A stretch of DNA of 64,000 bases from Promethearchaeota archaeon (GCA_014728035.1 WJMJ01000059.1:128001-192000), one strand, 5' to 3'. Counted from the first letter of the stretch, positions 11,360 to 18,517 are shown. Made by a program: numbers and translations. The notes: generated from the letters alone by a model not told the origin.

Positions 11360-11562
11360 GTATTCAGGAACGTTATTCTAAAATAGCAAAAATCGGAAAA
11401 TAGGATTGTGAGCGTGCCATTAATATCGATAATGGATATATCCCATTGATGATTATTTATCAAAAATATCCCTCTCTCTCATGGTATCGCTTCACAAATT
11501 TTTTAACTTGATATTCGATACTTGCTAAATGCGCGTTGATAACCTCGTTGGCGGTTTCTAAA

Positions 11563-12963
11563 ATGGTAAGAGAATCTTCTATTGTATATCGAACTGTAAC
11601 GGATGTGCGTGGTCCATTAGTCATTGTAGATAGCACACATAACGTGGCCTATAATGAAGTTGTTAAGATTCGAGCCCCTAATGAGGAACTTCTCACTGGT
11701 ACAGTTTTAGAAACTGGACGCGGCAGAGCAGTTATTCAGGTTTTTGAAGGTACAAGTGGATTAGATACAGACCTTACAGCTGTACGGTTTACTGGGGAAA
11801 CAATGAAACTTCCAGTATCAACAGAAATTCTTGGGCGTATTTTGGATGGCTCTGGGAATCCTTTAGATAAAGGTCCACCCTTAACAGCCGAAGACCACTG
11901 GGATATCTATGGGTCTCCAATAAATCCCTATGCACGACAATATCCTCGACAACCCATTCAAACTGGTTTATCTGTTATTGATGGTTTGAATACTCTGGTG
12001 CGAGGCCAAAAACTACCAATATTCTCTGGATCTGGTCTTCCCCATAACCGAGTTGCAGCTCAAATAGTACGACAAGCAAAGATTCCAGGAGAAGAAGGCG
12101 ATTTTGCTATTGTTTTTGCTGCAATGGGTATAACTGCCACCGAGGCTCAGTATTTTATGGAATCTTTTGAAGAAACTGGTGCACTTGAACACACTGCATT
12201 GTTTCTGAATCTTGCAAATGATCCTGCCATCGAACGGATTATCACACCTCGTGCAGCTTTGACTGCTGCTGAATATCTTGCATATGAATCAGATATGCAC
12301 GTGCTTGTCATTCTGACCGATATGACCAATTATGCAGAGGCACTTCGTGAGATAAGCGCTGCTCGGTCCGAAGTCCCTGGAAGGCGAGGTTATCCTGGCT
12401 ATCTATATACTGACCTGAGTCTTATCTATGAACGGGCTGGCAGAATCAATGGTAGAAAAGGAACCATTACACAGATGCCAATTCTATCTATGCCTCAGGA
12501 TGACATGACCCATCCAATTCCAGACCTTTCTGGATATATCACTGAAGGGCAGATGATTGTGAGTCGACCAATACACCGAAAAGGCATTTATCCTCCAATT
12601 GATCCAGGACCATCTCTAAGCCGACTTATGAAAGAAGGAATTGGTGAGGGTATGACTCGTTTCGATCACAAAGAAATTCAAGCTCAACTATACTATGGCT
12701 ATTCTGAAGGTCGAGACCTTCGAGACCTTGTAGCTGTTGTGGGATCTGAAGCACTAACCGATCGGGATCAAAAATATTTGCGATTTGCAGATCGATTCGA
12801 AAGCGAGTTCATAAACCAGGGCGAATTTGAAGATAGATCATTCGAGACTACTCTTGATATCGGATGGAACCTCCTAAGTGAGTTTCCTGAACGTGAGCTT
12901 AAACGATGTGACCCTTCTACCATACAATGGGCAAAAGAACGTGGTGTCTACAAGATTCTCTAA
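11563..12963 (+). CDS. atpB: A/V-type ATP synthase subunit B
   Basis: [43 protein letters not shown]; likely ATG at 11563. Confidence 0.95.
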
Positions 12964-13484
12964 CCGCTCTGATTAAGTGACTCCTCCAATTTTTGGATGA
13001 AAAACCATCGAGTAGCTTGTGAGTAAGCATACCCATCTAGATTAACTAGATTACCAAAGACCTTTTTCCAAGCTTTCCAGAGAATCAGAAGGTGGTGATG
13101 GGGCAGCATGAAATAACAATTCAATTCATTTAGTCTTTTTAGTGAAAGAAACTGGCCTAGTCTTGCTGTAAATTTATCTGCTTCACCTTCAATTTTCCAT
13201 AGCGCCATAGGTGGATAGTCGTAATGTGGATAATCAAATCTGTCATAGGGAATTATGGTCATTGGTTCTGAGATTATGAGAATCTGCGCTTTTTCCTCAA
13301 ACCTGTGAAACATTTGCTTATGGCTGTGTGATTGCTGTATTGGCTTCTTTTTCGAACATGGGACAAAGAGAATTGGTTTTCCATTTGGTTTCCATGTTTC
13401 AAGAACCGATTGTGTGAATTCAGTTACTTCAGCGTTATCAAATCGATGCGTCACTCTACTAACAACTGATGTTTGAACTCTCAT
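12960..13484 (-). CDS. Stand-alone ArcS catalytic-core-like (DUF5591-like) protein
   Basis: [16 protein letters not shown] and [10 protein letters not shown]...YPHYDYPP match the PCSxxKPYxxSxSH / SxP...P...YD signature of the archaeosine synthase core; same strand and just downstream of dpdA. Confidence 0.7.
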
Positions 13485-13524
13485 ATCTGTAATTTATGCC
13501 AATGATATCTTATGTATTGTGTGA

Positions 13525-14742
13525 TTAAAATTCACCAAGAGTTGTTTGCTTTACTGGGTCTGGCTCGTCAAGGATTTTTTGAAGTTGCTTATAGAATACC
13601 CACGTATTGTGAAATCCTCTTCTTCGATTTCTATTGTTCCCTCTAAATATAATCACTTCAACTCCCACCCTTTTACAAATAGCACAATCACATAACTCCC
13701 ACGGTCGATCTTTCAATGTCTTTAGATATTCATCAGCATGGCTTTTCTTTGCATCAATAATAGAATCGTACCATAAAATTGCTTCAAGGACTTCATCTAG
13801 GTCTGCCTTGTTCCTTCCATACATTCGCATGAGTCCCATGCAACCTTCTTCCATTGCCTCAAGCTCTTCGAGCTCGATGTTTCCTGTTCCAAGAATTTTT
13901 TTGGCTTTCGGGCTTCTATCACTTTGAGGTATTCGTATGGCGGCATAGTTGTTCCCATCTGGTAGCATGTAATTGCTTCTAGATCCTAACCATGCTCTTC
14001 TCAGGTGTGATGCAGAATCGAATGAGGTTATACCCAATTTTTGCATTTCTCTCATTGCGCTCAATCGAGCAACGCCAAAGAGATGAACACCTACTCTTTC
14101 ATGCTCACTCAGCACTTCGTGTATCGCACGTAGCATGTCTAGAACTGTTGAAGTAGGTGATCTGGTAAGTCCGCCAATAGCAATGTATTGATATCCTATA
14201 TCCAACAATTCCTTGACTGATTCTTTGTAAGATGTTGCATCCCATCCCTGAGCAGCACCTACCGGAACATAATCAAATCCTTTTGAATCATGAACCTGTA
14301 GAAACTTCTCGGCATTTTTTATAGTGATATCATATCGGTTGTGTTTTTGTTCTTCAAATTGCTTAACAATAAGATGGTCAACGCTTACCCCATAATCAAA
14401 ACCTAATTTGTGATAGTATTCTGCAGTTTCCTTGGTTTTATACGGTGGCACATCTTCTTTGATGTATCCATATGCCCCACAATCTCCAAATACAGGTCCA
14501 TCAAATCCCAGATATTCATGTATTCCTACATTCGTTATACGTTTCATGTTTTTCTTGTTTTCTTCAATTTTAGCTTTTGAAACCAGTATGCCATCATATG
14601 GTGGTGAGCTATAAATCTCATGGGCTGTAACCTTGATTCCATCAGTTGGTTCATCTTCGATAAAATCGTAATTCAAATCAACACGATCATCCCACCAAGG
14701 AATATAGTAGTTCATTCTATTAGGAATCCCAAATCTTGACAC
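13525..14742 (-). CDS. dpdA: DpdA-type tRNA-guanine-transglycosylase-like enzyme (7-deazaguanine DNA insertion family)
   Basis: HEIY..PPYDGILVSK, GDCGAYGY, FDYGVSVDH, AQGW, YIAIGG, HLFG, SFDS, AIRIPQ, Zn site CDCAIC, IFRGNNRNRRRGFHN; no PUA domain. Confidence 0.85.
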   Translation of the reverse strand: MSRFGIPNRMNYYIPWWDDRVDLNYDFIEDEPTDGIKVTAHEIYSSPPYDGILVSKAKIEENKKNMKRITNVGIHEYLGFDGPVFGDCGAYGYIKEDVPPYKTKETAEYYHKLGFDYGVSVDHLIVKQFEEQKHNRYDITIKNAEKFLQVHDSKGFDYVPVGAAQGWDATSYKESVKELLDIGYQYIAIGGLTRSPTSTVLDMLRAIHEVLSEHERVGVHLFGVARLSAMREMQKLGITSFDSASHLRRAWLGSRSNYMLPDGNNYAAIRIPQSDRSPKAKKILGTGNIELEELEAMEEGCMGLMRMYGRNKADLDEVLEAILWYDSIIDAKKSHADEYLKTLKDRPWELCDCAICKRVGVEVIIFRGNNRNRRRGFHNTWVFYKQLQKILDEPDPVKQTTLGEF

Positions 14743-14844
14743 GTATTTCTACACCTTTTTTTGTCCATGAATTATTTAATGAGTAATGTACTTATACTCG
14801 CCAGAAAGTGACCTTAAAAGAGTTCTACATTGTATGTGATTGTT

Positions 14845-15546
14845 ATGGATATTTGTGTTATTGGAAGCTGTGGAAAAAAGAAACAGACATCTAGCCCAGA
14901 AGCTCCTACTTGTAATCAATTACAGTCGAAAGAAGATCTTGCTATTTGGAGAGAAAGACTTCAGGATTTAGTTGTTCCAGCACGTGATATGTACGTTGGT
15001 AATCAAAGCAGAGAACTAGGGAAGGGTGTGGACCTTTTAAGAACAATTGATAATGTTTCAGTTGAGTATTTCATCATTTCCGCAGGATTTGGACTTCTTG
15101 CAGAAAAATCTCTTGTACCACCATATGAATGTAGTTTTTCTACGATGGGGTCAAAGGCAATCAAGAAACGGGCCAGTAATCTATCAATCGATTCAGATTT
15201 CCTATCAATATGTGAAAAGAAGTACGATTTGCTCTATCTCGCGCTTGGTAAGAAGTATCTATATTCCCTAGGGTCTTCTTGGCAATCCGTGTTCGATGGA
15301 ATATTAGTCGCATTTGATTCGAAATTGGACTCTCCAGATGCAATTATTATTCCCGCAGGCAATTCGACTGTTAAAGCATTTTCCCGCCATGGGCACAAGG
15401 TCCATGGAGCCGCTGGATTCAAAGGTGATTTGTTGAGAATTCTTGCTGACTATGCATTGAAGCAAGAAGACAGCTACAATGAAGTTTCCGCTTGGGTTGA
15501 ACCTTTCTACCTAAAGCAGACTATATTCTCTTTTGCTGGTTTATAG
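14845..15546 (+). CDS. DpdC-like protein (YaaA/DUF328-related fold)
   Basis: CGKKK, PARDMYVG, IISAGFGLL, PPYECSF motifs of YaaA-like proteins; divergent from dpdA; ATG at 14845 (ORF opens at 14830). Confidence 0.65.
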   Translation: MDICVIGSCGKKKQTSSPEAPTCNQLQSKEDLAIWRERLQDLVVPARDMYVGNQSRELGKGVDLLRTIDNVSVEYFIISAGFGLLAEKSLVPPYECSFSTMGSKAIKKRASNLSIDSDFLSICEKKYDLLYLALGKKYLYSLGSSWQSVFDGILVAFDSKLDSPDAIIIPAGNSTVKAFSRHGHKVHGAAGFKGDLLRILADYALKQEDSYNEVSAWVEPFYLKQTIFSFAGL

Positions 15547-16410
15547 TTATGAAACTTTGACATTGTGTTTTTGTGAATCTGCAGTTTCTCGAATCCCTGA
15601 GTCACAGTTGTCATAGGATACTTTCGTTTCAATTGAGTATGCTTTAGATTCCTTTCCTATCTTGAATTCTAATAGAATTTCAACCTCATAGGGCTCAAGT
15701 TGTAATGAAGTCTTAAGAAAATCGACAACCAATACCCCTTCTACGACTTTGTACCCTTTTGCTTTTTTCAATTCAATTTCAGGTGTACTTTCAAAGGTTA
15801 CTGATATATTCTGATATGGATGAATGAATCTATTAACAAGCTTACCTGTTACTTGAAGTATTTCATCAGGCTTTAGTTCACCTTTAGAATCAAGGACTAT
15901 CTGTGGAGGCAGTGGTGTTCCCTTTTCCTTCTTTCTACCTCGTCTATATGATCTTGTTGACCTTACATCTTTTGGAAGCTCTTCTTTCCCCTCGTAAAGT
16001 CCTTCTTCGAGTTTCTCGGGTTCTTCATCGAATGTAATTAATGTACTAAATGTAGCTATCTTGACACTATTAATCTTGTTAGATGTGATGCCGGCATCTT
16101 CTTGAGCTTCTCGGATGAGCTCTATCATATAATCGGTACAAACCTTGAGTTTGTACTCTTTTAGCTTCTCGTCTTTTTTCATGATTGATTTATATTTATC
16201 ATGAAACTTCAAAATCTCTCTACCGACAGGTACTTTTTCTTTGTTTTTTTCAAACCATGCTTTTCTTGTAGTTTGTTTGTAACTGAACGGTCCAAATGAT
16301 TTACACGCCTTTGACCAAGCTTCAAGATCAAGTTTTTTGATTTCTGGCATCAGCATGTCTCTGATGTATTTTTTCATTTCTTTAGTCAGAACATCTTTTT
16401 TTGTTGGCAC
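15547..16410 (-). CDS. Hypothetical protein, Lys-rich helical N-terminus and probable beta-sandwich C-terminus
   Basis: 287-aa ORF with GGAG upstream of GTG; no family recognised. Confidence 0.6.
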   Translation of the reverse strand: MPTKKDVLTKEMKKYIRDMLMPEIKKLDLEAWSKACKSFGPFSYKQTTRKAWFEKNKEKVPVGREILKFHDKYKSIMKKDEKLKEYKLKVCTDYMIELIREAQEDAGITSNKINSVKIATFSTLITFDEEPEKLEEGLYEGKEELPKDVRSTRSYRRGRKKEKGTPLPPQIVLDSKGELKPDEILQVTGKLVNRFIHPYQNISVTFESTPEIELKKAKGYKVVEGVLVVDFLKTSLQLEPYEVEILLEFKIGKESKAYSIETKVSYDNCDSGIRETADSQKHNVKVS

Positions 16411-16569: not shown

Positions 16570-16911
16570 CTATTCCAATCCGTGTTGCATATAATGGCCA
16601 GCTTTTTTCTTCTCCCCAAAACTACGAAGCCCTTCTGATTTCAGTTGGCTCCTTATTGCTCTTGCCTCAGATTGACTGATCTCTCCACGTTTTAAAAGGT
16701 ACTTCACTATCTCTTCAGCTTGGTTTACCGTGTCACAACGGCGGAGATAATCAACGACATCTGGTGTAAATCTGTATTGTTCAGTTTCCTCCTCTTCCGA
16801 CATCGTACGAACCCCATCAATCTTATGTGTTTGAGTTTTTCCCGACCGCATCTCCTCACTAATTGCAGGAAATGATTTCATGAATTCGTTGTCTCGATTC
16901 ATAATTATCAC
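16570..16911 (-). CDS. DUF2095-family archaeal protein
   Basis: PDVVDYLRRC...EIVKYLLKRGEIS...GLRSFGEKKKAGHY. Confidence 0.75.
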   Translation of the reverse strand: MIIMNRDNEFMKSFPAISEEMRSGKTQTHKIDGVRTMSEEEETEQYRFTPDVVDYLRRCDTVNQAEEIVKYLLKRGEISQSEARAIRSQLKSEGLRSFGEKKKAGHYMQHGLE

Positions 16912-16990: not shown

Positions 16991-18517
16991 CTATTGAATA
17001 AATTTCCATGGCAACGGACCTTTCAGCCTCTCTCGATTATTGGCAATCGCAAAGAATGGAAGCCCTGTTTCCTTTTCTGCCCTTCTCCAACCTCCTAATC
17101 CTCCATACGATGCTGCAATCTTAATTATTTCCCCCATTTTTTTGTCACCCAAAGAAAGTGATGCCTGTATTCTTGCATGTCTCGGATCCAGTGTTTCAAC
17201 GGTAACCCTAGGAATATTGTTAATTCCTTGTTCTAGTGTCCGTATTTTTTCTCGTATGATGTAGATTGGTGATTGAGCATTACGTTCGAATCTTGTATTA
17301 GCTTTTGGAACAAAAGGATTAGCACTAATAGTAATTTTACCTGGAAAGATTTCTGCAATTTGTTTTGATAAATTGGTGATTGCAAGTATATCCTTTTCAT
17401 CTTCGTATGGAAGTCCAATGATGAAATATAGCTTGATTGAATACCACTTTGCGTCCGCTGCAAGTTTTACTGCCTTGAGAATAGCTTCATCCGTTAAACC
17501 TTTTCCCAAAATATTTCTTAGACGACTTGATCCGGTTTCAGGAGCTATTGTTAGAGTTCTTTGCCCCCCTTGCATCAACAAATCTAGAGATTTTCTGGAT
17601 ATTGAATCAGCTCGGAGTGACGGAGCTGATATTTCCAAATCTCGTTCTATACACCATTCAACTAGTTGTTCAAACTCTGGCAAGTCGCCCAAAGTTGGAG
17701 CAATGAAAGCTACTTTTCTTACTGGTGTTTCATTGATTCCTTTTGTGATAATCTCTTTCAATTTTTCAAACGAACGAAGTCTTCTGGGCCTGCATATATG
17801 TCCAACAAGACAAAATTTGCATGAATGCCCACAACCTCTCCCCACTTCTACAAGTAGTGCTTTTCCAAATACAGGTTCTAACTTTGCGCCCTCTGGAACA
17901 TCTGGGATAATCTGTTTTGTAGGATGGAACAGCTCATCTAAGTTTTGCATAATTTGCCGTTTGATTGGTTGTTTCTTTATACTTGGCACATATACACCTT
18001 GCAATTCTGCCATCTTGCCTAAAGCATCTTGTCTACTTTCAGAATTCAGTATACAATCAGCTATGCTATGAAATACCAAGTCCCCTTCTCCAATTACGAA
18101 AGCATCAATGAATAGCTCGTATGGACATGGGTTTGCACTTACTACGGGACCCCCCATAATCACAATTGGGTCTTCATTCATTCGATTGGCAGCTATATGT
18201 GGAATGTTTGCTTCAGATAGCATTTGTACAACATGAAGAATATCTTCTTCAAACGAAAGAGAAAACCCAATTAAATGATTATCTTTCAAATGTCTTTTTG
18301 TTTCAACAGATCTGATGGGAGAGTATGTATCATACCTAAAATATCGTTCACACGATATGTTCTTTCTTCTGTTCAAGCTTGAGTAGAAAAGATGTGTTGC
18401 TAAGCTTGTCATACCCGCACGATAGGTTGATGGATAACAATACCCAATCAGAACATCAACATCTCGGATGTCTTTAACTACGGTATTGATCTCGGTCAAA
18501 GATAGTTTTCCCAACAC
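16991..18517 (-). CDS. Radical SAM protein with B12-binding-like N-terminal domain
   Basis: YPSTYRAGMTSL, GGPVVSANP, GEGD, EVGRGCGHSCKFC (CxxxCxxC), APETGS, KLYFIIGLP. Confidence 0.88.
   Translation of the reverse strand: MLGKLSLTEINTVVKDIRDVDVLIGYCYPSTYRAGMTSLATHLFYSSLNRRKNISCERYFRYDTYSPIRSVETKRHLKDNHLIGFSLSFEEDILHVVQMLSEANIPHIAANRMNEDPIVIMGGPVVSANPCPYELFIDAFVIGEGDLVFHSIADCILNSESRQDALGKMAELQGVYVPSIKKQPIKRQIMQNLDELFHPTKQIIPDVPEGAKLEPVFGKALLVEVGRGCGHSCKFCLVGHICRPRRLRSFEKLKEIITKGINETPVRKVAFIAPTLGDLPEFEQLVEWCIERDLEISAPSLRADSISRKSLDLLMQGGQRTLTIAPETGSSRLRNILGKGLTDEAILKAVKLAADAKWYSIKLYFIIGLPYEDEKDILAITNLSKQIAEIFPGKITISANPFVPKANTRFERNAQSPIYIIREKIRTLEQGINNIPRVTVETLDPRHARIQASLSLGDKKMGEIIKIAASYGGLGGWRRAEKETGLPFFAIANNRERLKGPLPWKFIQ

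Follow-up and report, generated by a model that had tools for sequence, protein, structure and literature searches.

What is a predicted DNA-guanine transglycosylase of the bacterial type doing on the chromosome of an archaeon, side by side with a stand-alone ArcS core and in a genome with no recognizable gene for its partner DpdB? 7-Deazaguanines in DNA are known to date from bacteria (Dpd islands) and from viruses. The locus considered here lies in a 64,000-nucleotide stretch of DNA (the window) from a member of the Thorarchaeota, in keeping with the Asgard origin surmised in a preliminary description of this DNA. The answer that we favour, and that we regard as reasonably probable, is that a four-gene block on this chromosome encodes machinery for placing 7-deazaguanine in DNA without DpdB.

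A four-gene block at a variable site

Four genes make up the accessory block, an insertion with atpB on one side and a DUF2095 gene on the other (Table 1). The preliminary description had recognized three of them, and all three open reading frames are there, as are the convergent 4-bp overlap between the ends of atpB and the ArcS2 gene (12960-12963) and the abutting ends of the DUF6884 gene and its neighbour (15546/15547). The unit, however, is really one of four genes rather than three, as that neighbour, encoding a 287-aa protein, varies together with the DUF6884 gene. The ArcS2 gene lies 40 bp downstream of dpdA on the same strand. All four frames are intact in the source genome (G000), with the catalytic residues retained, and the base composition of the block shows no anomaly. 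In the intergenic region between dpdA and the DUF6884 gene, a sigma-70 promoter scan returned no more sites than shuffled sequence, the sigma-70 model not being applicable to archaea. Genes for defence or mobility are absent from the flanks of the block, in agreement with the earlier remark that neither dpdD-K genes nor an integrase lie nearby; atpB, DUF2095, a B12-radical-SAM gene and an NTP-transferase are the neighbours in every state of the locus, and no dpdD-K restriction genes (helicases, PLD etc.) are linked to dpdA there in any of these states.

Table 1. Features of the block and its boundaries (positions counted from the first letter of the window)
Feature	Position	Strand	Remarks
atpB (A-type ATP synthase subunit B), left boundary of variable site	11536..12963	+	Pfam ATP-synt_ab
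ArcS2, stand-alone ArcS core (DUF5591, C1 domain only)	12960..13484	-	174 aa; Pfam DUF5591 52 bits
DpdA, putative DNA-guanine transglycosylase, bacterial (bDpdA) type	13525..14742	-	405 aa; NF041059 424 bits
PIP-box-like C-terminal tail QTTLGEF of DpdA	13528..13548	-	follows acidic/Pro linker reaching past 7UI4 fold
AT-rich divergent intergenic region, dpdA (-) / DUF6884 gene (+)	14743..14844	.	presumed promoters, from sequence
DUF6884 / YaaA-fold, DpdC-like protein	14830..15546	+	238 aa as ORF; probable start ATG 14845, 233 aa
287-aa protein without known family	15547..16410	-	co-occurs with DUF6884 gene
DUF2095 archaeal protein, right boundary of variable site	16570..16911	-	Pfam DUF2095 71 bits

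Relatives, in all of which atpB is 84-98% identical, present this site in three states: empty, with atpB adjoining DUF2095 at a distance of 39-60 bp (G003, G005 and G010); occupied by the DUF6884 and 287-aa genes; or occupied by all four genes. The trio that was originally noticed does co-occur in relatives: five other genomes, from four genera, have it with unchanged gene order and position (G001, G035, G026, G009 and G008). It was also thought to be a 'settled' module, an impression at odds with the variability of the site and with a frameshifted ArcS2 gene in G008 and a DpdA fragment in G017. DpdA and ArcS2 come and go together, with a patchy distribution (6 of 37 genomes), and DUF6884 can remain without both: its gene is present in 20 of the 61 family genomes, as against about 7 for dpdA at the same locus. 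The 287-aa gene always accompanies the DUF6884 gene, in the two-gene as in the four-gene state, and is not found in the empty one. Where the block is retained its genes appear constrained, dN/dS for all four ranging from 0.035 to 0.13 in the G035/G026 pair (0.035 for dpdA, 0.058 for the ArcS2 gene), on a par with the low values of the housekeeping genes on either side; the value for the 287-aa gene is 0.08. The site also shows presence/absence polymorphism, and alleles have been exchanged between lineages. A single acquisition in the family, at a recombination-prone site, followed by many losses, whole or partial, is the probable history of the block.

The proteins and their relatives

The sequence of the 405-aa protein identifies it as a DNA-guanine transglycosylase of the DpdA type, its active site and Zn site intact. 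That this TGT-fold gene is dpdA and not arcTGT, as had been proposed, follows from a score of 424 bits with NCBIfam NF041059 (cut-off 200) against 52 with the arcTGT model (TgtA); the Tgt model gave 24 and the PADLOC DpdA model 390 bits. Every signature motif claimed for it was found (GDCGAYGY at residues 86-93, SVDH at 120-123, SFDS at 240-243, CDCAIC at 351-356 and FRGNNRNRRRGFHN at 366-379), and the claimed lack of a PUA domain holds as well, Pfam detecting the TGT domain alone with no PUA, C1/C2 or other extra domain. The protein aligns with DpdA of Salmonella Montevideo (PDB 7UI4) across residues 8-391 (E 3.6e-75) and shares its fold, catalytic Asp pair and Zn site, the last formed by C351-x-C353-x2-C356 plus H378. 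Asp87, Asp122 and Asp242 align with Salmonella Asp95 (the acid/base), Asp130 and Asp256 (the nucleophile). In all six Thorarchaeota copies, which are part of a monophyletic group (SH-aLRT 99), the residues found essential in the Salmonella enzyme (PMC10164549) are kept, as are the catalytic Asp residues (Asp87 in GDCGAY and Asp242 in SFDS) and the Zn residues; a single phage record matches this DpdA, at 32% identity. In contrast to the Salmonella DpdA/DpdB/DpdC system (PMC10164549), the thorarchaeal block has no DpdB and no dpdD-K neighbours, possesses ArcS2 in addition, and carries Gln165 in DpdA where Salmonella has His181.

The pairing of a DNA transglycosylase gene with a stand-alone DUF5591 core is known from viruses, namely from Vibrio phage nt-1 (DpdA2/ArcS2) and Sulfolobus virus STSV2 (PMC10516641, PMC6884629), and phage nt-1 DpdA2 and ArcS2 together produce dG+ in E. 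coli plasmid DNA (PMC10516641). The assignment of a stand-alone ArcS-core gene downstream of dpdA stands: the match to DUF5591 (GA 26) comes without Nt, C2 or PUA domains, the NCBIfam ArcS model is matched only partially (model positions 266-356), and the catalytic motif is present at residues 42-55 as PC-x3-KP(I)-x2-S-x2-H, with Ile in place of the Tyr of the published PC-X3-KPY-X2-S-X2-H. Viral and thorarchaeal ArcS2 share the PC-x3-KP-x2-S-x2-H motif, which is retained in five of the six Thorarchaeota copies and missing in that of G008; the ArcS2 genes of Sulfolobus viruses STSV1/2/4 were matched by tblastn, and PDB 2q07 (AF0587) at E 1e-6. Unlike the viral pairs, the thorarchaeal one is chromosomal and cellular, occupies a fixed site in several genera, has a DpdA of the bDpdA type with a PIP-like tail, and is accompanied by the DUF6884 and 287-aa genes.

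Does the DUF6884 gene belong to the same pathway? From its probable start the protein has the same length as database copy P0004. It falls just below the Pfam gathering threshold for DUF6884 (28.5 bits; GA 30), matches YaaA at E 0.039 and has no match in NCBIfam. The YaaA fold proposed for this divergent YaaA/DUF328-like gene is nevertheless borne out by its AF2 model (pLDDT 96), to which E. coli YaaA (5CAJ) was the sole PDB match at E<0.001 (E 1.5e-4, TM 0.45). Salmonella DpdC, of the YaaA/DUF328 superfamily, is related to it, and the PADLOC DpdC model is matched at E 6.5e-9; this likeness, however, covers only the first third of such models (residues 5-117 against positions 4-115 of 312), the thorarchaeal protein having 233-238 aa and DpdC about 310. 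Viral DUF6884 proteins are matched at E 7e-6, and the conserved motifs are SCGKKK, SAG[FY]G, PY and GxKG.

In bacteria, to go by gene fusion and adjacency, DUF6884 is linked to DpdA, and numerous Dpd-like islands encode the two as one fused protein. The DpdA clusters nearest to those of Thorarchaeota are mostly DUF6884-DpdA fusions, and the closest non-Asgard relatives (46-52% identity) are fusions in bacterial Dpd-like islands (Desulfosporosinus fructosivorans, Paenibacillus tyrfis), whose N-domains align with the thorarchaeal DUF6884 protein along its whole length (residues 10-226; E 6e-22 and 1e-27). One fusion adjoins DndB, a helicase and a PLD protein, another FolE2-QueC-QueD-QueE and HerA/UvrD/nuclease genes, and a compact arrangement of QueD, DpdA and DUF6884 also occurs. 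Whereas these bacterial proteins are fused and accompanied by preQ0-synthesis genes and helicase/nuclease effectors, the thorarchaeal genes are separate and divergent. Moreover, in at least 10 relatives without DpdA and ArcS2 the DUF6884 and 287-aa genes are retained, both under purifying selection. Because of this retention, the role of a DpdA-dependent tailoring enzyme, which the preliminary description had given to the DpdC-like gene, is not secure; its function may be unrelated to DNA, and the proposed tailoring in two ways, to dADG and to dG+, is purely conjectural. The 287-aa protein, without a match in Pfam, NCBIfam, PADLOC or PHROG, combines a conserved helical N-domain, a basic linker (RRGRKKEKG) and an Ig-like beta-sandwich; its AF2 model (pLDDT 88) matches generic Ig-like folds only.

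How DpdA might work without DpdB

In vitro, bDpdA requires DpdB and ATP (PMC10164549). How, then, could such an enzyme act in a cell that seems to lack DpdB? No match to DndB/DpdB (PF14072) was found in the 97.9%-complete genome, nor in any of the six four-gene loci. A concrete possible answer is offered by the C-terminus of DpdA, which resembles a PIP box. Twelve of 17 Thorarchaeota DpdA clusters end in Q-[TA]-x-L-x-[DE]-F, and Q..L is kept in all 17; Heimdall DpdAs end in QxxLxxFF or QxxIxxFF, and such tails are rare in the other, mostly bacterial, DpdA relatives. The archaeal PCNA clients FEN1, PolD DP2, PolB and Nre likewise end in Qxx[LI]x[DE][FY] after a flexible linker. Under the strict C-terminal definition only 7 of 3023 long ORFs of G000 (0.23%) carry the motif, and four of the six other than DpdA are PolD DP2, PolB, FEN1 and Nre; to judge from this list, the motif specifically marks replisome clients in this genome.

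Prediction of a complex with PCNA scored 0.46 (best control 0.00), which lends weak support. Of the solved complexes, 58 of 80 attained the mark applied, as did 2 of 110 mismatched pairs; with scores of 0.60 or less, however, only 7 of the 80 attained it, along with both mismatches. Agreement between runs was at least 97% of contacts, with a partner pLDDT of at least 50. As PIP-PCNA complexes have already been solved, the pass may reflect structures familiar to the predictor. The candidate PIP-box reading is based on a short motif and a weak model score. The literature searched contained no description of a base-exchanging or DNA-modifying transglycosylase as a PCNA client. We entertain as possible, though doubtful, that DpdA of Thorarchaeota and Heimdall archaea has swapped DpdB for this tail, PCNA carrying the enzyme along DNA so that dPreQ0/dG+ would mark the chromosome in the wake of the replication fork or where DNA is repaired.

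The most likely function, as far as it can be read from the sequence, would be a DpdB-independent, possibly PCNA-tethered dPreQ0/dG+ modification of DNA without linked restriction genes. DpdA would swap guanine in duplex DNA for preQ0, reaching its substrate via the tail docked on PCNA in place of the ATPase DpdB; ArcS2 would convert dPreQ0 to dG+ (or a lysine adduct); and the DUF6884 enzyme might act on the nitrile like DpdC, giving dADG, or on a related 7-deazaguanine substrate independently of DpdA. As no restriction partner is linked, the mark would be an orphan protective or epigenetic modification. Where would the preQ0 come from? As for synthesis genes elsewhere in the genome, QueC was not found there, and 58 of the 61 genomes of the family lack it; de novo supply is therefore not evident, and no YhhQ-type transporter was found in the genome either. 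The tRNA pathway of the family (arcTGT/ArcS) needs the same precursor, however, and some supply must therefore exist. The T. kodakarensis ArcS depends on a radical-SAM partner, RaSEA (PMC11298593), for which no counterpart was identified here.

Competing readings and implications

Could the block instead be the self-marking half of a defence system, shielding the host's DNA against a restriction or effector part encoded elsewhere or against viral nucleases? Every characterised cellular DpdA system belongs to a Dpd restriction-modification island, and the site, with its polymorphism and exchanged alleles, resembles a variable hotspot; yet at none of the six four-gene loci does a helicase, nuclease, HerA or PLD gene adjoin the block, and the housekeeping flanks are identical in all three states, so that we hold this reading to be unlikely. 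Somewhat less probable still is a non-functional or fading relic, in which DpdA would be inactive on DNA without DpdB and a preQ0 source, and the block would be on its way out. Such a fate would suit the patchy distribution, the damaged genes of G008 and G017 and the failure to find DpdB, QueC or YhhQ, but it sits uneasily with four intact frames and catalytic residues in G000, with dN/dS values as low as those of the flanking genes, with a DpdA tail conserved across genera, and with the precursor supply that the tRNA pathway presupposes.

A further possibility is a second, specialised archaeosine-type pathway whose enzymes act on RNA (tRNA or some other), or on 7-deazaguanine as free base or nucleoside, rather than on DNA. 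The ancestral function of the TGT and ArcS families lies in tRNA, ArcS can use substrates at the nucleoside level, even the bare preQ0 nucleoside (PMC11298593), and a base- or nucleoside-level substrate would fit the retention of DUF6884 without DpdA. Against this, the genome contains complete tRNA enzymes elsewhere, in the form of a separate arcTGT with PUA (TIGR00432, 504 bits) and a separate ArcS with PUA; DpdA scores far better with its own model than with that of arcTGT, lacks the tRNA-binding C1/C2/PUA domains, aligns with the DNA enzyme 7UI4 over its full length, and ends in a tail common to DNA replication and repair proteins. We consider this third reading very improbable.

If modification of DNA without DpdB is indeed what the block does, what would follow? 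The enzymes are of known kinds; new here would be a DpdB-less version ending in a PCNA docking-like motif. The cassette predicts a 7-deazaguanine DNA mark in Asgard archaea, a cellular archaeal case, and names the minimal set of parts with which to reconstitute it (DpdA and ArcS2, with or without DUF6884). Since some related populations carry DpdA/ArcS2 and others do not, the three states of the locus supply built-in controls when metagenomic long reads are examined for the mark. The apparent absence of QueC across a family that keeps arcTGT and ArcS points to preQ0 from some other source. PCNA tethering, if correct, would be the first link of base-exchange DNA modification to the sliding clamp, and it would imply a replication-coupled, restriction-free 7-deazaguanine mark, epigenetic or protective, in the closest prokaryotic relatives of eukaryotes.

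A four-gene unit at a variable chromosomal site

The three ORFs claimed in the preliminary description, P0001, P0002 and P0003, are all present in the window, and they recur together, with gene order and location unchanged, in the five relatives of G000 (the genome studied) that share the four-gene state, representing four genera of one family. The unit, however, is not a trio but four genes at a variable site between atpB and the DUF2095 gene, because the familyless 287-aa gene is present in both the two- and the four-gene states and absent in the empty one. Across the family loci, DpdA and ArcS2 are gained or lost as a pair; in G008, ArcS2 is frameshifted and its PC motif lost, and in G017 (another relative) DpdA remains as a fragment only.

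Genes of the insert and states of the atpB-DUF2095 site
Feature	Position or extent	Strand	Remarks
ArcS2	12960-13484	-	P0001, 174 aa, DUF5591 protein
DpdA	13525-14742	-	P0002; profile scores, 7UI4 alignment, Zn site
DUF6884 protein	14830-15546 (probable start 14845)	+	P0003; weak DpdC and YaaA matches
287-aa protein	15547-16410	-	no family; belongs to insert
Empty state	atpB-DUF2095 gap of 39-60 bp		G003, G005, G010
Two-gene state	DUF6884 and 287-aa genes		ten genomes of g6, g7, g8, g11, g15
Four-gene state	ArcS2, DpdA, DUF6884 and 287-aa genes		G000, G001, G035, G026, G009, G008

A tree built from a concatenation of four flanking proteins puts genomes of the four-gene state in three separate places, although the Thorarchaeota (Thor) DpdAs are monophyletic (SH-aLRT 99). 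A single acquisition followed by several losses is therefore favoured, though not proven; the backbones of the DpdA, DUF6884 and flank trees are not resolved. For the G035/G026 pair, dN/dS of 0.035-0.13 for all four genes indicates strong purifying selection; dN/dS is unusable for G000/G001 and most two-gene-state pairs, where dS is saturated. Between G035 and G026, dS is 0.48-0.88 from atpB through the 287-aa gene, as opposed to 0.08-0.18 from DUF2095 onward, and in the same-genus pair G008/G074 two cassette genes are only 47% and 37% identical, compared with 72-98% in the flanks. Divergence changes abruptly at the cassette's right-hand border, a hallmark of recombinational allele exchange. 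Because cassette and flanks diverge so differently in both pairs, we conclude that cassette alleles pass between lineages in this way. With three locus states, decay and allele exchange, the earlier description as a 'settled orphan module' does not fit.

To the right of DUF2095, a B12-binding radical-SAM protein (16991-18517, -; TIGR03960, an uncharacterised family; 281 bits, below cut-off) adjoins DUF2095 in all three states and so lies outside the cassette. A promoter and terminator scan with sigma-70 models returned no more sites than shuffled sequence; these bacterial models are uninformative for an archaeon.

In the 287-aa protein a basic linker joins a conserved helical N-domain to an Ig-like sandwich; the protein has no match in Pfam, NCBIfam or PADLOC. 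Its look-alikes in the Atlas are solely DUF11/CARDB-like Ig domains with scores at chance level, and Foldseek matched its C-domain to generic beta-sandwiches only and its helical N-domain to nothing. Throughout four loci of genus g6 (L029, L035, L036, L038) the gene is shortened to the helical N-domain (145-159 aa), with neither basic linker nor Ig-like domain. A 294-aa gene following a DUF6884-DpdA fusion elsewhere (L042) was considered as a homologue, but is not similar.

DpdA, ArcS2 and the supply of preQ0

G000, in which the window covers C25:128001-192000, is a 4.3-Mb MAG, 97.9% complete; the names carried by near-identical proteins assign it to Thorarchaeota, with 'BAJATHORv1' as its genus-mate. 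Against NCBIfam NF041059 (cut-off 200) P0002 reaches 424 bits, against the arcTGT model only 52 bits and against the PADLOC profile for DpdA 390 bits; its alignment with the solved DNA-guanine transglycosylase of Salmonella Montevideo runs end to end (7UI4; E 3.6e-75). Its Asp87, Asp122 and Asp242 are the counterparts of Asp95, Asp130 and Asp256, shown or proposed to be essential in the Salmonella enzyme (PMC10164549), and the zinc site CxCxxC...H is kept; Salmonella His181 is replaced by Gln165. P0002 is thus a DpdA, the name that the NCBI annotation pipeline already gives to these Thorarchaeota proteins. Since G000 encodes a separate arcTGT (a 697-aa ORF on contig C44; TIGR00432, 504 bits; PUA at 621-694) and a separate PUA-bearing ArcS (a 636-aa ORF on C28; 382 bits), P0002 is neither the sole TGT nor the tRNA enzyme of this genome, in agreement with the earlier claim of a DNA-type TGT. 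C84 carries yet another TGT-like ORF, the third in G000 (L003:1204-2334, +; 376 aa), which is highly divergent, with 20 bits on PF01702, 19 bits on the model for DpdA and no match to any PDB sequence.

P0001, which carries a 14-residue motif, is the C1 core of ArcS in isolated form. The name ArcS2 comes from Cui, Hutinet and colleagues, in whose work it yielded dG+ with the nt-1 DpdA2 in E. coli (PMC10516641), and tblastn with P0001 matched the ArcS2 genes of STSV1, STSV2 and STSV4. The end product of this route could be either dG+ or a lysine adduct, because the ArcS of T. kodakarensis requires RaSEA, being active only in its presence (PMC11298593).

How are these enzymes supplied with preQ0? 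QueC was found neither in G000 nor in 58 of the 61 family genomes, and G000 likewise showed no transporter of the YhhQ type (YhhQ/Vut_1); it does encode a QueD/PTPS homologue. An ORF on C95 with weak QueC matches turned out to be a generic PP-loop ATPase. Some kind of preQ0 supply must nevertheless exist, because arcTGT and ArcS, the enzymes for archaeosine in tRNA, need preQ0 too.

The DUF6884 protein and its link to DpdA

The AF2 model of P0003 (pLDDT 96.3) has a sole significant PDB neighbour, E. coli YaaA (5CAJ). Its viral structural neighbours are phage DUF6884 proteins; tblastn of P0003 against phage genomes gave no match, and neither P0003 nor the 287-aa protein matched any PHROG. The nearest non-Asgard relatives of P0002 (46-52% identity) are mostly proteins of 660-710 aa bearing a DUF6884 domain at their N-terminus, with which residues 10-226 of P0003 align (E 6e-22 and 1e-27). 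One such fusion has as neighbours DndB, a helicase of 1651 aa and a protein of the PLD type, and another contig has the order QueD, DpdA, DUF6884 gene. In Desulfosporosinus fructosivorans (SPQQ01000005.1; L083), the fusion is first in an operon with FolE2, QueC, QueD and QueE, then a 400-aa gene, HerA-like, UvrD and the nuclease genes (PD-(D/E)xK, GmrSD), a Dpd-like island without DpdB.

These fusions and neighbours led us to conclude that P0003 is probably a DpdC-like enzyme of 7-deazaguanine chemistry. The earlier claim that it is the DpdC-like partner of DpdA stands only in part, however: the bacterial arrangements speak for it, whereas in the family the gene is retained without DpdA. It occurs in 20 of the 61 genomes, compared with about 7 with DpdA-type matches, and where DpdA is missing it remains at this site and evolves under purifying selection (dN/dS 0.15, G021/G077). 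DpdA-made dPreQ0 need not, then, be the substrate of the enzyme in Thorarchaeota.

A common origin of DUF6884 and DUF5591, suggested by 'SCGKKK' and 'PCSKKKP', was unsupported (hhalign probability 1.3% over 15 columns); Foldseek gave E 0.018 for P0003 against the nt-1 ArcS2. The gene lying upstream of a Heimdall DpdA (L084:1-786) was ruled out as a DUF6884 homologue.

A PIP-like tail and the place of the cassette among known systems

No DndB/DpdB-family gene was found in the 97.9%-complete G000. The last seven residues of P0002, QTTLGEF, are PIP-box-like and lie outside the 7UI4-aligned part. Twelve of the 17 Thor DpdA clusters carry Q-[TA]-x-L-x-[DE]-F no more than two residues from the C-terminus, and Q..L is retained throughout the 17; the Heimdall DpdAs have QxxLxxFF or QxxIxxFF as their last residues. 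Among other relatives even a loose match occurs in only 14 of 251, several of these being Heimdall or unnamed sequences. The strict C-end motif is found in 7 of 3023 long ORFs of G000: PolD DP2, PolB, FEN1, Nre, DpdA, a DUF2797 protein (C103:27350-28249, -; NQTGLSEFV) and a C39-peptidase-like protein of 174 aa (C16:9990-10514, +; LQPKITEFID). The last two may be PCNA clients that have so far gone unrecognised, or may match by chance. The PolD large subunit (C25:40040-44980) and PolB (C161:23412-28400) both contain intein splicing domains, PolB also a LAGLIDADG domain.

Complex prediction of PCNA with the last 50 residues of DpdA scored 0.46 (best control 0.00), with at least 97% contact agreement between runs and a partner pLDDT of at least 50. 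This is weak support: 58 of the 80 solved complexes reached the mark, as did 2 of the 110 mismatches, but passing scores of 0.60 or less comprised only 7 of the 80 and both mismatches, and the pass may reflect memory because PIP-PCNA structures are already solved. Taken together, the four tests of the tail (conservation, position, specificity and complex prediction) provide good independent evidence that P0002 would work on DNA, and make the tail a reasonable candidate for a DpdB replacement.

The cassette proteins are members of the known families bDpdA, ArcS2 and DUF6884/DpdC-like, and the closest known combinations are the viral DpdA-ArcS2 pairs and the bacterial DpdA/DpdC machinery. Five features set the cassette apart: it is cellular and archaeal, has neither DpdB nor linked restriction genes, combines its DpdA with a putative clamp-docking tail, and sits at a three-state chromosomal hotspot. 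A literature search retrieved no paper tying DpdA to PCNA and none on an Asgard DpdA cassette; what the present analysis adds is the three-state anatomy of the locus, the evidence from fusions and the tested pattern of the PIP-like tail.
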